A DNA stretch of 64,000 nt, taken from NCBI GenBank assembly GCA_040218735.1, contig JAVJQW010000021.1, forward strand, positions 27,629 through 91,628, in the 5' to 3' direction. The notes below the pieces were generated by a model. It had not been told where the DNA came from, searched no databases, and saw only the letters and a program-made list of their open reading frames with translations. Positions 1,471 to 1,811 of this stretch are shown here, one piece after another (position 1 is the stretch's first letter; each line of letters starts with the position of its first letter). This DNA comes from Deltaproteobacteria bacterium. Lineage in GTDB: Bacteria > Myxococcota > Kuafuiibacteriia > Kuafuiibacteriales > Kuafuiibacteriaceae. The position numbers and the translations under genes are program-made.

Positions 1471-1613
1471 GTCGACGCGTCCCCTTCACGGGACATCTTA
1501 CAAGCATTCGCGGGTTCGAATCCCGCCTACTCCGTCGGAGTAGTCGCCAAGTGGTAAGGCACTGTTTTAGGGAAACAGCACAACTGTCCAGATACCCATC
1601 TCGGACGTGTCGC
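1471..1613 (+). ncRNA. Permuted tRNA-like structured RNA, copy A (Y-RNA/YrlA-like tRNA mimic candidate)
   Basis: T-arm GCGGG-TTCGAAT-CCCGC at 1510-1526. Acceptor 3' strand CTACTCC+G, 2-nt linker, acceptor 5' strand GGAGTAG (1527-1543). D-arm GCC-AAGTGGTAA-GGC, anticodon-like arm CTGTT-TTAGGGA-AACAG. Terminal stem GACGCGTCC(1474-1482)/GGACGTGTC(1603-1611) with one G-U pair. Confidence 0.55.
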
Positions 1614-1648
1614 CGCGCTCTTTTGACAATTTGAAGTTTCGACAGGTC

Positions 1649-1811
1649 GATGACGTGTCCCCTTTTCGGGACATCTTACAAGCAATACGGAGGTTCGAAT
1701 CCTTCCTTCCCCGCTCCTCGGGGAAGTAGCCTAGTGGTCTAAGGCATCGTTTTCTTAGAACGACAATTCAAGTTCCAGATACCCCACTCGGACACGTCAT
1801 CTCGTTTTTTC
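1649..1811 (+). ncRNA. Permuted tRNA-like structured RNA, copy B, ending in an intrinsic-terminator-like U-tract
   Basis: Perfect 12-bp terminal stem GATGACGTGTCC(1649-1660)/GGACACGTCATC(1790-1801) followed by TCGTTTTTTCG. T-arm GGAGG-TTCGAAT-CCTTC, acceptor CTTCCCC/GGGGAAG joined by a 7-nt loop, D-arm GCC-TAGTGGTCTAA-GGC, anticodon-like arm TCGTT-TTCTTAG-AACGA. Shares the internal motifs CGGGACATCTTACAAGCA and CCAGATACCC with copy A. Confidence 0.55.

Follow-up and report, generated by a model that had tools for sequence, protein, structure and literature searches.

Arrays of permuted tRNA-like RNAs beside genes for a putative Ro60-like protein and a ubiquitin-like module in bacteria and phages

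The window, by which we mean the whole stretch of 64,000 nucleotides analysed here, comes from a Myxococcota genome and corresponds to our locus L006 from position 12613 onwards. It begins inside an operon whose order at this locus is vWA, X300, JAB, S88 and E1, followed by an array of two RNA units, A and B (Table 1). The end of the vWA gene lies 762 nt before window position 1, and unit A, at L006 14083, starts about 2.2 kb downstream of it on the same strand. The open reading frame at 1392-1634 (80 aa, TTG start), which lies over unit A, was treated as spurious, since it does not pass the GC3 filter by which real genes stand out in this genome of 69% GC. A scan for promoter and terminator consensus sequences around the two units gave nothing relevant.

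Table 1. Coordinates of the operon genes, of RNA units A and B and of their surroundings (window positions unless L006 is given)
Feature	Position	Strand	Description
vWA gene	ends L006 11851	+	616 aa, first of operon; upstream of window
X300, C-terminal 47 codons	2..145	+	second operon gene; 300 aa; gene at L006 11855-12757
JAB/JAMM peptidase	152..529	+	125 aa; HSHPGSGVPAPSHED motif; Pfam Prok-JAB E 6e-5
S88, putative ubiquitin-like/sulfur-carrier-like protein	531..797	+	88 aa; translation ends ...RPKTPFG-AAP
Minimal E1-like adenylyltransferase (ThiF family)	794..1372	+	192 aa; Pfam ThiF PF00899 E 3.6e-25
Unit A	1471-1614	+	permuted tRNA-like RNA on scaffold; tRNA-Pro(AGG)-like head; own model 153.5 bits
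Unit A P1	1471-1482/1603-1614	+	5' strand GTCGACGCGTCC, 3' partner GGACGTGTCGCC
Unit A J1/2		+	CCTTCAC, between P1 and P2 5' strands
Unit A P2	1490-1498/1590-1597	+	5' strand GGGACATCT, 3' partner AGATACCC
Unit A motif	1499-1505	+	TACAAGC (UACAAGC in RNA)
Unit A T arm	1510-1526	+	GCGGG/TTCGAAT/CCCGC
Unit A capped acceptor hairpin	1527-1543	+	CTACTCC-GTC-GGAGTAG
Unit A D arm	1546-1560	+	GCC/AAGTGGTAA/GGC
Unit A anticodon arm	1562-1578	+	CTGTT/TTAGGGA/AACAG
Unit A J2/1	1598-1602	+	ATCTC
Spacer A-B	1615-1648	+	T run (CTCTTTTG) and GTTTCGA motif
Unit B	1649-1801	+	permuted tRNA-like RNA on scaffold; tRNA-Lys(CUU)-like head; own model 153.2 bits
Unit B P1	1649-1660/1790-1801	+	GATGACGTGTCC/GGACACGTCATC, perfect 12 bp
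Unit B P2	1668-1676/1777-1784	+	
Unit B motif	1677-1683	+	UACAAGC
Unit B T arm	1689-1705	+	
Unit B capped acceptor	1706-1726	+	loop GCTCCTC
Unit B D arm	1729-1745	+	
Unit B anticodon arm	1747-1763	+	loop TTCTTAG
Unit B J2/1	1785-1789	+	CACUC
T6 tract	1805-1810	+	3' of unit B, just ahead of the convergent gene's stop codon
Acyl-CoA dehydrogenase gene	1815-3617	-	convergent with units A and B

An earlier examination of the letters of this DNA, the sequence-only reading, had described two tandem, circularly permuted tRNA-like units, and we found every element that it listed in place. In both units a T arm is followed by a capped 7-bp acceptor, a D arm and an anticodon arm, while the ends of the RNA pair as a two-part stem, P1/P2, sited at the variable-loop position. 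The GC-rich terminal helix foreseen for the molecule's ends is P1, which is perfect in B and covaries; the short helix proposed between this stem and the tRNA core is P2, which covaries among homologs and is accompanied in both copies by UACAAGC; and the U6 tract said to end copy B is likewise present. We assign the units to the plus strand because of their G.U pairs, their D- and T-loop consensus and the T runs that trail them. By sequence comparison only, the GTTTCGA motif of the spacer recurs ahead of units in related arrays.

Minimum free energy (MFE) folding of unit B returned the whole proposed structure, and the folding z is about -3 for both units. The MFE structure of unit A prefers a local hairpin, GUCCC/GGGAC. 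Loci such as L005, L012 and L023 do not conserve it, while the long-range P2 covaries, and we regard this hairpin as a possible alternative fold only. Compensatory changes between A and B are seen in the T, acceptor, anticodon and P1 stems. A covariance model seeded with A, B and one homolog recovered 22 full-length units at E<1e-5 in related loci and at least 75 further units in metagenome loci, with scores that span 35 to 165 bits over four phyla. In the 22-unit alignment, 96% of cells are paired, versus 68% in shuffles, both sides change in 32 of 36 pairs, and the covariation score is 0.687, versus 0.17 when shuffled and 0.06-0.12 with slid partners; covariation backs 7/7 helices, the capped acceptor and the long-range P1/P2 among them. 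The covariance-model search suggested by the sequence-only reading, which had staked the idea on compensatory covariation, thus gave about 100 more copies and seven covarying helices. The structure of A and B, its conservation and its permuted-tRNA nature are more than chance.

These data bear directly on the view that a mobile element with a tRNA array left the units behind, as tRNA pseudogenes in decay or as att-site duplications of an integrase, a view that could draw on the several phage-borne contigs and the tRNA arrays adjoining them. An att-site duplication, raised earlier as a remnant of a normal tRNA 3' half, would yield neither a complementary 5' acceptor strand nor P1/P2 pairing, and compensatory changes are found in all helices, both of these included. 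Moreover, the scaffold motifs are kept across phyla, the same five genes are consistently associated, and the alignment, given its range of scores and phyla, is not dominated by very recent copies. Because the helices covary, the att-remnant view is effectively refuted, and we assign this explanation as a whole almost no weight.

ARAGORN found 0 tRNA or tmRNA genes in the native sequence of the window, whereas after in-silico de-permutation it called A as tRNA-Pro(AGG) and B as tRNA-Lys(CUU), and it calls a tRNA in 17/22 units so treated. G18G19, A14 and the T-loop TTCGAAT are present in A and B; the Levitt pair 15:48 covaries (G:C in 8 and A:U in 12 among 21 units read from the alignment); and the seven-nucleotide anticodon-like loops keep U33 and purine 37 in 15/15 while the triplet varies. 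A gathering-level Rfam search of the window gave no match, the only Rfam tRNA matches there bridge two units or break the T arm, and the tmRNA model did not match the window even in E-value mode. The units therefore resemble canonical tRNA and tmRNA in having all four tRNA arms, the conserved tertiary nucleotides and the anticodon-loop signature, and differ from them in an acceptor closed by a loop, with no encoded CCA end and no tag reading frame in the units, which bears out the earlier statement that they are neither a standard tRNA nor tmRNA. Since tRNA finders and curated Rfam thresholds miss them, the units are unannotated at present.

Permuted tRNA genes are known from the red alga Cyanidioschyzon merolae. 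There the 3' half (T arm, acceptor 3' strand) precedes the 5' half (acceptor 5' strand, D arm, anticodon arm) in the gene, and a short linker connects the two acceptor strands; the splicing machinery joins the precursor ends at a BHB motif, and removal of the linker gives a normal tRNA. Our units share the 3'-half-first order and the short acceptor linker. However, their ends form a long conserved helix with motifs that look like putative protein sites, a BHB motif is not evident in them, and the same scaffold also carries non-permuted heads as well as heads that are not tRNAs, the latter lacking the acceptor (type b), lacking the anticodon arm or consisting of two plain hairpins.

Could the units nevertheless be working permuted or split tRNA genes, in which the capped acceptor is opened by RNase P and 3' processing, CCA is added, the halves are held by P1/P2 as a giant open 'variable arm', and the product is aminoacylated and used in translation, supplementing the tRNA arrays? 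The full tRNA calls with ordinary anticodon loops after de-permutation are compatible with this, as are the large tRNA arrays that adjoin the system in many loci and phages and the Leu anticodons of several heads, natural tRNA-Leu having a long variable arm. In addition, a 7-bp acceptor is the main RNase P determinant, and in vivo the Mycobacterium smegmatis YrlA RNA, whose stem has this length, undergoes RNase P cleavage and CCA tailing (PMC4201824). Against this, a scaffold of ~70 nt with conserved single-stranded motifs far exceeds any known variable arm, the same scaffold carries heads unable to be tRNAs, CCA is not encoded, and some units have odd anticodons (AGG, AAG and AGU with A34; UUA) or 8-nt anticodon loops. 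Since the scaffold is the most conserved part of the units, it points to a protein-binding handle rather than to a decoding function, and we consider working tRNAs distinctly unlikely.

The pair in the window is a small instance of a system in which each locus carries 1-8 units with differing tRNA-like heads. We found it in Myxococcota, Verrucomicrobiota, a spirochaete (Leptonemataceae), Methylobacter MAGs and large phages, among them phage Rctr197k and IMG/VR contigs of 111-233 kb. The vWA, X300, S88 and E1 genes are conserved together with the RNA, and in the four cellular groups the units adjoin the gene set on the same strand, directly after the E1 gene in Myxococcota and directly after the vWA gene in Verrucomicrobiota and Leptonemataceae. 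An RNA-first metagenome scan showed, among the matches listed, system genes in the stored flank of 29/54 unit-bearing loci; 17 of the 25 loci without them are shorter than 4 kb, and eight longer ones among the matches listed carry units but no detectable system gene nearby. The family is abundant, and the vWA gene is represented by 1,634 protein clusters. The coupling of the RNA array to the five-gene set in genomes is thus an observation, and the functional link to the E1/Ubl/JAB cassette, which had been called speculative, has gained conserved synteny across phyla and in phages. In the accessible literature, full-text searches brought up no account of such a gene set together with tRNA-like RNAs, and permuted-tRNA RNA arrays with a Ro60-like protein and a ubiquitin-like module apparently constitute a widespread but undescribed bacterial and phage gene set.

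The same comparison speaks to whether the units are merely cis-acting parts of the operon transcript, namely 3' stabilisers, terminators or processing signals. They do lie on the operon strand, directly 3' of E1 in Myxococcota or within the operon in Verrucomicrobiota, and a T run follows each of them. Yet the copy number varies from 1 to 8 with differing heads, the array stands upstream of the vWA gene in L017, L018 and L022, and sigma-70-like boxes (TTGACA-17-TAAGAT or TATAAT) lie directly upstream of the array in L012, L014 and L023. A terminator, moreover, needs neither conserved tRNA tertiary pairs nor anticodon-loop signatures, and a cis-acting role is very improbable.

Bacterial YrlA RNAs, which carry the tRNA modifications Psi55 and D and are bound by Rsr/Ro60 in vivo, are the sole non-tRNA Rfam family that matches the units. 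The YrlA model (RF02553) gives 27.4 bits for unit A and 20.5 bits for unit B, at model positions 29-81 only, and 36.2 bits for the best relative (L004), so that the matches as a whole, at 20-36 bits and E down to 7e-6, stay below the gathering threshold of 69 bits; they cover exactly the T arm, capped acceptor and D arm hairpins. Apart from tRNA and YrlA, no Rfam family scored better than E 0.3, and we discarded a ribozyme or riboswitch scaffold. YrlA RNAs are tRNA-mimicking bacterial Y RNAs bound by Rsr/Ro60 (PMC4201824; structure preprint 10.1101/312249); their ends form the Ro-binding stem, and their genes share a strand with rsr at a distance of no more than 4 kb, with several at one locus and, in some cases, co-transcription with a tRNA (PMC4201824). 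A covarying Levitt pair 15:48 has been reported for YrlA, and its motif GNCGAA(N)G is the proposed Rsr contact (Chen et al. 2014, PMC4201824). Near the 5' end, units A (start GUCGACG) and B (GUCGAUG) each have this motif with one mismatch, and it is not conserved in homologous units (CCTCACG, GCTGACG, ACCGCC and others); conserved in the scaffold are instead NNCUC(G) and YUYACAMGC.

The resemblance to YrlA therefore extends from the order of parts (5' stem strand, T arm, capped acceptor-like hairpin, D arm, 3' stem strand), the T- and D-loop consensus and the covarying 15:48 pair to the pairing of the RNA ends, which in YrlA serves as the protein-binding stem. It also takes in the 7-bp acceptor of the M. 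smegmatis RNA, there giving an RNase P/CCA substrate, the nearness on the same strand of a gene for a Ro60-type protein (helical ring plus vWA), a putative one in our loci, the presence of more than one RNA per locus, and the occurrence of both in phages with many tRNAs. In contrast to YrlA, most units retain the whole anticodon arm, including the U33/R37 signature of its loop, and their scaffold joins at the variable-loop position, whereas in YrlA the terminal stem replaces the anticodon stem; some array members have no separate anticodon hairpin and hence show YrlA topology. Further differences are the CUC(G) and YUYACAMGC motifs in place of GNCGAA(N)G, arrays that may hold as many as 8 units and in which one scaffold accepts interchangeable types of head, a partner that is not a Pfam-TROVE Ro60, and an operon with X300, Ubl, E1 and often JAB, where YrlA has RtcB/RtcA. 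The earlier assignment to the Y-RNA/YrlA kind accordingly stands as regards the matching core, the paired ends and the Levitt pair, and falls short as regards the gathering score and the GNCGAA(N)G motif.

We then considered the protein encoded by the first gene of the operon. It had been noted correctly that the window holds no Ro60/TROVE gene, the window beginning inside the operon, and a search for such a locus elsewhere in the genome had been suggested. An AF2 model of the 616-aa protein (pLDDT 77.7) has as its top Foldseek PDB matches TROVE/Ro60 structures over about 550 columns at a TM of only 0.3-0.39, with E-values of 9e-7 (9kop), 1e-6 (1yvp) and 3.5e-6 (phage Ro60 9l5y), while vWA-only matches reach 6e-5 or worse; its BFVD fold matches include a phage TROVE protein, and its best PHROG is phrog_850, 'RNA-binding protein'. 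A broadened profile of the family matches RO60 at 7e-4 and the TROVE chains 9l5y/9kop at 0.011 over profile positions 280-518, a match that reaches about 100 residues upstream of the vWA domain, and a divergent family member has RO60 as its best PDB sequence match. Pfam VWA_2 is present in 35/35 family members and Pfam TROVE (PF05731) in 0/35, phmmer and hmmsearch with a close-family profile gave vWA matches only and no Ro60, and a single-sequence AF2 model of the N-terminal 413 residues (pLDDT 42.7) was too poor to use. As for a Ro60 locus outside the window, a vWA gene upstream of the window has Ro60/TROVE as its best fold matches and has no Pfam TROVE match; the fold comparison suggests a divergent Ro60-like (helical plus vWA) protein, with a homology that is remote, at the level of fold and with weak sequence support.

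The evidence leans towards A and B being Y-RNA/YrlA-like tRNA mimics that dock on a Ro60-like protein, that is, genes for stable non-coding RNAs of ~140-150 nt. Each unit consists of two modules, a conserved scaffold built from its own ends, comprising P1, an internal loop (pyrimidine-rich on the 5' side, NNCUC on the 3' side), P2 and the single-stranded (C)UUACAAGC, and a variable head, a complete tRNA body, joined via the variable-loop position. The scaffold may be the docking site for the divergent Ro60-like protein made from the operon's first gene, and the tRNA-shaped head may recruit or decoy a tRNA-recognising partner, candidates being cellular tRNA enzymes, tRNA-targeting nucleases and the co-encoded X300/E1/Ubl(/JAB) module. 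An array would then supply a set of ribonucleoproteins showing different tRNA look-alikes, in bacteria and in large phages with big tRNA arrays. We infer that the units are transcribed, processed and bound by the Ro60-like protein, and, as to biological role, that the system may act in tRNA surveillance or protection. Conservation of Y RNAs and of Ro60 extends from bacteria to humans, and the units bear on the binding partner of the tRNA-like half in bacterial Y RNAs: a single handle with so many exchangeable tRNA-shaped heads, permuted or non-permuted and with or without an anticodon arm, suggests that the functional surface consists of the tRNA shape and the anticodon loop, and X300, Ubl, E1 and JAB are concrete partner candidates for the RNA family.

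As regards these partners, X300 is conserved in 25 loci and showed neither a match to any family nor a PP-loop in profile and family searches. The JAB protein scores 23.3 bits with Pfam Prok-JAB, just under the 25-bit cut-off, and its motif reads HxH-x8-S-x2-D, one residue longer in spacing than the JAMM consensus HxHx7Sx2D. The C-terminal motif ...RPKTPFG of S88 is invariant among homologs, and in covered, non-redundant loci the residues that follow its Gly go together with the peptidase: JAB is present with an extended S88 in 26 loci, absent with a G-ended S88 in 5, present with a G-ended S88 in 1 and absent with an extended S88 in 0. The E1 homologs are 190-193 aa long; the best NCBIfam match is the SAMP-activating E1 UbaA, and the UbaA, ThiF and MoeB matches, at 1e-19 to 1e-21, lie below the equivalog cut-offs. 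Similarity to PRTRC or CBASS/Bil-type E1 proteins was weak and sub-threshold and no E2 is present, and this assignment was set aside.

Known Ubl-E1(-JAMM) systems include TtuB-TtuC-TtuA (s2T54), SAMP-UbaA-HvJAMM1, Urm1-Uba4 and QbsE-QbsC-QbsD, and the thiolation of tRNA in Thermus, archaea and eukaryotes draws on Ubl-E1 pairs. The cassette has in common with them a small protein with a C-terminal Gly, a ThiF/MoeB-type adenylating E1, the QbsD-like logic by which a JAMM peptidase occurs where the Gly of S88 is masked by extra residues, and a precedent for such pairs acting on tRNA. It differs from them in the lack of a recognisable sulfurtransferase, PP-loop thiolase, E2 or E3, in an E1 that is a bare 192-aa adenylation domain, and in an S88 C-terminus of FG rather than GG. 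To our knowledge, a fixed partnership with a Ro60-like protein and tRNA-mimic RNAs has been described for none of these four systems.

The RNAs might be mainly substrates or cofactors of the Ubl/E1/X300(/JAB) module, either in U54 or U34 thiolation through a Ubl-thiocarboxylate in the style of TtuA/B/C, Urm1-Uba4 or SAMP-UbaA, or in covalent Ubl chemistry on the RNP, with the vWA protein in a role other than a Ro60-like one. The hallmark C-terminal Gly of S88 and the JAB/extension counts, an E1 closest to SAMP/ThiS/MoaD activators, the conservation of four of the genes with the RNA and the thiolation precedents all argue for it; X300 without a PP-loop or recognisable family and an operon in which no rhodanese domain or cysteine desulfurase was seen argue the other way, and it leaves unexplained why the scaffold, not the head, is conserved. 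We judge this explanation unlikely. It and the Y-RNA-type explanation can both hold.

Bolder, and in our estimate doubtful, is the idea of a single machine made up of the five genes and the array. In it, a Ro60-like ring would show tRNA look-alikes that differ in their anticodon loops, while the Ubl, unmasked by JAB and activated by E1, would be spent on the RNP or on tRNAs as a sulfur donor or covalent tag. Such a machine might act as a decoy, as a sensor or as a platform for repair in the contest between phage and host over tRNAs, with anticodon nucleases as one possible adversary. If this is true, ubiquitin-like chemistry would here be coupled directly to a Y-RNA-type RNP for the first time. 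The gene neighbourhood is possibly new in that it links a Ro60-like RNP with both ubiquitin-like chemistry and the large tRNA arrays found in big phages.

Blastn of the 356-nt region against phage and plasmid records gave no match, and the 16-mer GGGACATCTTACAAGC had two exact matches in IMG/VR, both chance ones inside coding sequence with no T arm nearby. The pattern TYACAMGC-N(2-14)-GGTTCGAATCC found in IMG/VR mostly ordinary tRNA-Val genes (11-nt gap), because the motif spells the Val anticodon loop plus stem, and only L041, L087, L033 and L119 were relevant. An ad hoc regex/stem scanner was too permissive in GC-rich coding DNA and is left out of the counts. For the metagenome pattern scan the gap was narrowed to 2-9 nt, and the RNA pattern occurs at at least 120 metagenome loci.

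Every element that the sequence-only reading had listed for the two tandem units was found in both of them. Each unit opens with a 12-nt P1 strand, a 7-nt pyrimidine-rich stretch, the P2 strand GGGACAUCU and UACAAGC plus 4-5 nt, followed by a T arm of 5 bp with the loop UUCGAAU. The acceptor stem lies 3' of the T arm as a 7-bp hairpin, capped by 3 nt in unit A and 7 nt in unit B; a D arm (A14/G18G19) comes 2 nt past it and is separated by 1 nt from an anticodon-like arm of 5 bp with a 7-nt loop, UUAGGGA in A and UUCUUAG in B. After a further 11-13 nt stands the P2 partner AGAUACCC, leaving a 2x1 internal loop in P2, and the 3' end is formed by NNCUC and the P1 partner strand. 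Unit B is directly followed by a T6 tract, and unit A is trailed by CTCTTTTG. The copies are 84% identical, and sequence comparison revealed that their differences are compensatory pairs in the T, acceptor, anticodon and P1 stems. The thermodynamic fold of unit B is the entire hand-drawn model; that of unit A has the head (the tRNA-like body) as modelled, but prefers a local hairpin at the 5' end. The folding z is about -3 for both. Unit A is overlapped by an 80-codon ORF with a TTG start (window 1392-1634); its GC3 falls outside the filter passed by real genes of this genome (69% GC), automatic pipelines could mis-annotate it as a gene, and in the related locus L003 a 68-aa ORF is called in the equivalent spacer.

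Related loci, mostly MAG and metagenome sequences, were found via the neighbouring E1 gene. In these, the same operon is followed by tandem arrays of like units: L003 has three, L004 about eight and L005 at least four. A covariance model of the copies, which the earlier reading had proposed, was built from A, B and one L003 unit; it returned 40 matches in 25 sources, among them 22 full-length matches at E<1e-5, only A and B within the window (153 bits each), and 75 further matches at E<1e-6 in 100 metagenome loci. In the 22-unit alignment, which was fitted to this model and is hence biased towards it, although the margins are large, 96% of paired cells held standard pairs as against 68% in shuffles and 34-43% with slid partners, 32 of 36 pairs had changed on both sides, and the covariation score was 0.687 as against 0.17 shuffled and 0.06-0.12 slid. 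Double-sided changes occurred in all seven helices (P1, the two P2 halves, T, acceptor, D and anticodon), and the same pairings can be recognised by eye in the raw sequences of related loci. A covarying pair links D-loop position 15 to position 48, the nucleotide immediately before the T stem (G:C in 8 and A:U in 12 of 21); this is the tRNA Levitt pair and an argument also made for the bacterial Y RNA YrlA (PMC4201824). U33 and purine 37 are present in 15 of 15 seven-nucleotide 'anticodon' loops, and the middle triplets vary (AGG, CUU, CAU, UUC, GUG, AAG, UAG, CAG, UGG, GUU, UUA, AGU). The feature is real, and the units are conserved structured RNAs; that they should be pseudogenes or att-site relics is extremely improbable.

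On the 64-kb window ARAGORN reported nothing, and neither did Rfam at its curated thresholds. In permissive mode tRNA and YrlA (RF02553) were the only meaningful Rfam families: the tRNA matches span the two units, and the YrlA matches (27.4 and 20.5 bits, gathering score 69) coincide exactly with the T arm, capped acceptor and D arm. We then de-permuted the units in silico by opening the acceptor loop, swapping the scaffold (P1/P2) for a 5-nt variable loop and adding CCA. ARAGORN called 17 of 22 such sequences complete tRNAs, A as tRNA-Pro(AGG) and B as tRNA-Lys(CUU); the other five are heads without a separate anticodon arm or not tRNA-like. From the conserved structure with its covariation, the tRNA signatures including the Levitt pair and the de-permutation calls, we therefore conclude that the units are complete, circularly permuted tRNAs broken in the variable loop, as the sequence-only reading had it. 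One Verrucomicrobial unit (L027 9321-9465) has the head anticodon UUA, was called 'tRNA-Stop' after de-permutation and would read the UAA stop codon.

The part conserved across loci is the scaffold, consisting of P1, an internal loop with NNCUC on its 3' side, P2 and YUYACAMGC, a motif in which the two leading letters pair with an invariant AG to close P2. Heads of several types occur. The permuted full tRNA of the window, type (a), was the commonest found with a model based on, and biased towards, units of this type. Type (b) has non-permuted D, anticodon and T arms with the scaffold replacing the acceptor stem, and ARAGORN sometimes miscalls it as a tRNA (L011 4180, L012 11244, L014 11327, L024 8043, L030 9427). 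Type (c) has no separate anticodon hairpin, only a T arm, capped acceptor and D arm; it shares the topology of YrlA and gave the best Rfam YrlA score, 36 bits including the enclosing stem, and type (d) consists of two plain hairpins. One L004 unit (5225-5480) carries an insertion of about 125 nt in the acceptor loop. Judging from these sequences, exchangeable tRNA-shaped heads on a conserved handle are as expected for an adaptor RNA. Such an arrangement is unexpected for tRNA genes, and the view that the units are functional split tRNAs appears quite unlikely; it is equally unexpected for a cis-regulator, and a role as cis-acting operon elements is highly improbable.

YUYACAMGC (window 1497-1505 and 1675-1683, and all aligned homologous units) spells a tRNA-Val anticodon loop and the start of its 3' stem, C32-U33-[U/C/A]AC-A37-[A/C]38-G-C; its 'wobble' letters are U, C and A only, all of which give a Val anticodon, and because of this a pattern scan returned mostly ordinary tRNA-Val genes. 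The resemblance could be coincidental, result from mimicry, or mean that the scaffold derives from the 3' half of a tRNA-Val. In many arrays the opening element is of another kind: an insert of some 95 nt, ending in (U)UCUUACAMGC just before the T arm, is enclosed by that arm and an acceptor stem of GGGGCC type, a layout like that of tmRNA or a minihelix. The window (~1420-1470) and L003 seem to retain just a remnant of it.

Coordinates of the RNA units, the operon and associated features (window coordinates unless a related locus is named)
Feature	Position	Strand	Description
vWA protein	about -2611 to -762		616 aa
X300	-757 to 145		300 aa, without family match
JAB	152-529		125 aa
S88	531-797		88 aa, Ubl-like
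E1	794-1372		192 aa, ThiF-type
Units A + B	1471-1801		RNA
Unit A	1471-1614	+	RNA
Unit B	1649-1801	+	RNA
T6	1805-1810	+	directly 3' of unit B
Type (d) head	L004 4939-5038		two plain hairpins
Array-opening elements	L004 4630-4760; L010 10815-10950; L020 11195-11335; L005 4640-4700; L087 3455-3565
Sigma-70-like boxes	L012 ~10795-10830; L014 ~10925-10960; L023 ~12025-12055; L024 ~7760-7795
Canonical tRNA arrays	L013 236-6774; L014 6464-13456; L027 4320-6930; L029 1193-4181; L031 5070-8899		14-31 genes

The window is identical to an 11.5-Mb JGI contig (L006) from position 12613 and therefore starts inside the operon; a convergent acyl-CoA dehydrogenase gene comes after the units. In related loci the RNA array is always on the operon strand. 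Most Myxococcota have it 3' of E1, and L017, L018 and L022 have it 5' of the vWA gene; in Verrucomicrobiota and the spirochaete it stands immediately after the vWA gene and before X300, an order resembling the classical one of rsr followed by Y RNA. In several loci, sigma-70-like boxes (TTGACA-17 nt-TAAGAT, TATAAT or TAGAGT) stand directly 5' of the first unit, which suggests that arrays may be transcribed on their own; no such match was found in the window.

The vWA family is large and highly conserved, with 1,634 clusters at E<=0.001, the best 120 at >=59% identity. Scanning one genome per species gave 21 loci, most of them in Myxococcota MAGs (Polyangia, Kofleriaceae, Sandaracinaceae, Sorangium) and the remainder in Verrucomicrobiales, one Leptonemataceae chromosome and one Methylobacter MAG. 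In the related loci vWA, X300, S88 and E1 co-occur, with JAB optional. Ordinary tRNA gene arrays adjoin the operon in many loci (26 genes in L013, 17 in L014, 14-15 in L027 and L029); the window's own 64 kb contains no tRNA gene. In L026 (10858-11434) each of three tRNA-Ser-like genes called by ARAGORN (UGA, CGA, GGA) is paired with a scaffolded unit in strict alternation, which gives the appearance of a repeating module of tRNA plus unit.

Phages also carry the set. In the 197-kb Caudoviricetes record of Rctr197k, 31 annotated tRNAs immediately precede the vWA and X300 homologs, JAB, S88 and E1 are further on, and a unit is at L031 19535-19674; IMG/VR carriers are L041 (233 kb), L033 (111 kb) and the contig sampled in L119. 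At L031 10935-11873 the Rctr197k record (KX853510.1) places a hypothetical CDS on the minus strand, opposite a clear X300 homolog of 50% identity on the plus strand, probably through annotation error or pseudogenisation, and it gives the vWA homolog as a misc_feature only.

An RNA-first pattern scan of metagenomes gave at least 120 loci, and among the first 100 examined 54 had model-confirmed units, and in 29 of these the stored flank includes system genes. The other 25 comprise 17 that are shorter than 4 kb and eight longer ones, in which no system gene was detectable near the units; the coupling of RNA and gene set is therefore strong, though perhaps short of absolute. Beside the units in several of these eight are ORFs of about 500-630 aa with no Pfam match or a weak vWA one, and in two other loci (L160 and L186) adjacent ORFs are 27-28% identical to the vWA protein. 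On one 10-kb metagenome contig (L244) an EF-Tu gene (555-1718) lies directly downstream of a unit array (1961-2743), and none of the five system genes was seen.

The sequence-only reading had noted that no Ro60 gene is in the window, which is correct, but the vWA gene upstream encodes a candidate Ro60-like protein. In the source genome, the search for further units or a canonical rsr covered the 64-kb window plus 22 kb. Sequence methods detected only a C-terminal vWA domain in the 616-aa protein. Its AF2 model from a 35-sequence alignment (pLDDT 77.7, pTM 0.48) has a short beta segment and about 300 helical residues before the vWA domain. The top Foldseek PDB matches, full-length over about 550 columns, were TROVE/Ro60 structures (9kop, 9e-7; Xenopus Ro 1yvp, 1e-6; Thermus-phage Ro60 9l5y, 3.5e-6), outranking every vWA-only match (6e-5 or worse); the TM-scores of these TROVE/Ro60 matches are low, 0.3-0.39. 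BFVD gave similar full-length matches, one of them a phage 'TROVE domain-containing protein'. The best PHROG was phrog_850, 'RNA-binding protein' (E 0.004), and the best PDB sequence match of a divergent family member was RO60 (E 0.15). A broadened-family profile matched RO60 at 7e-4 and the TROVE chains 9l5y/9kop at 0.011, with profile 280-518 on chain 210-453 reaching about 100 residues into the helical domain. The protein is thus probably a remote Ro60-like protein, an assignment at the level of the predicted fold.

YrlA is the closest known family in function and design. Of the YrlA-like layout that had been proposed, the T arm, capped acceptor and D arm stood, and the Levitt pair is a further shared feature. 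The units score below Rfam's YrlA threshold and lack the motif GNCGAA(N)G, and their partner is not a Pfam-TROVE protein. Unlike YrlA, they retain an anticodon arm and are joined by the scaffold at the variable loop. The RNA fold, the tRNA mimicry and the coupling to the gene set are observed, and as a composite explanation we favour, by a modest degree of confidence, Y-RNA/YrlA-like tRNA mimics on a Ro60-like protein. In Y RNAs the terminal helix binds Ro60 and the other module tethers an effector. By analogy, the candidate Ro60-like protein would be bound through the P1/P2 scaffold, in which CUC(G) and UACAAGC are invariant, and factors that recognise tRNA would dock on the tRNA-shaped head. 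YrlA of M. smegmatis, which shares the 7-bp acceptor of units A and B, is cut by RNase P and CCA-tailed in vivo while still on Rsr, the bacterial Ro60 (PMC4201824), and similar processing of the units is plausible. Because the anticodon-loop signature is kept, the triplets are varied and phage and bacterial tRNA arrays adjoin, we propose that, in conflicts between phages and their hosts, the RNAs may serve in surveying or protecting tRNAs or as tRNA decoys. A link to tRNA damage is also reported for the Salmonella rsr-yrlA-rtcBA operon (PMC7790460). In the literature searched, the Ubl, E1, JAB and X300 operon is undescribed, with earlier mention in reviews possible, as are multi-unit arrays with interchangeable heads and their presence in large phages beside tRNA arrays; an Asgard virus encodes a Ro60 and several E1-like proteins, which its authors did not link (10.1101/2021.07.29.454249).

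The E1 is a bare adenylation domain closest to SAMP/ThiS/MoaD activators, and the gene set contains no E2, rhodanese domain or PP-loop enzyme. In X300, for which family searches matched nothing, an R/E-rich coiled coil follows the N-terminal domain and precedes a conserved C-terminal one, in which two Cys are conserved. TtuB, Urm1 and SAMP systems are models for sulfur transfer to U54/U34, and the Ubl/E1/X300 module could donate sulfur to these positions in the same way or else act through conjugation to the RNP; that the RNAs are primarily a substrate or cofactor of this module seems unlikely. The S88 C-terminus ...RPKTPFG is invariant among homologs. Among non-redundant loci that cover the interval, 26 with JAB have residues past the Gly (1-60 in JAB-positive loci) and five without JAB end exactly at it, with one exception and none in the fourth class (hypergeometric ~3e-5 by our calculation), implying that JAB may unmask the C-terminal Gly of S88, as a JAMM peptidase unmasks Ubl or sulfur-carrier proteins.
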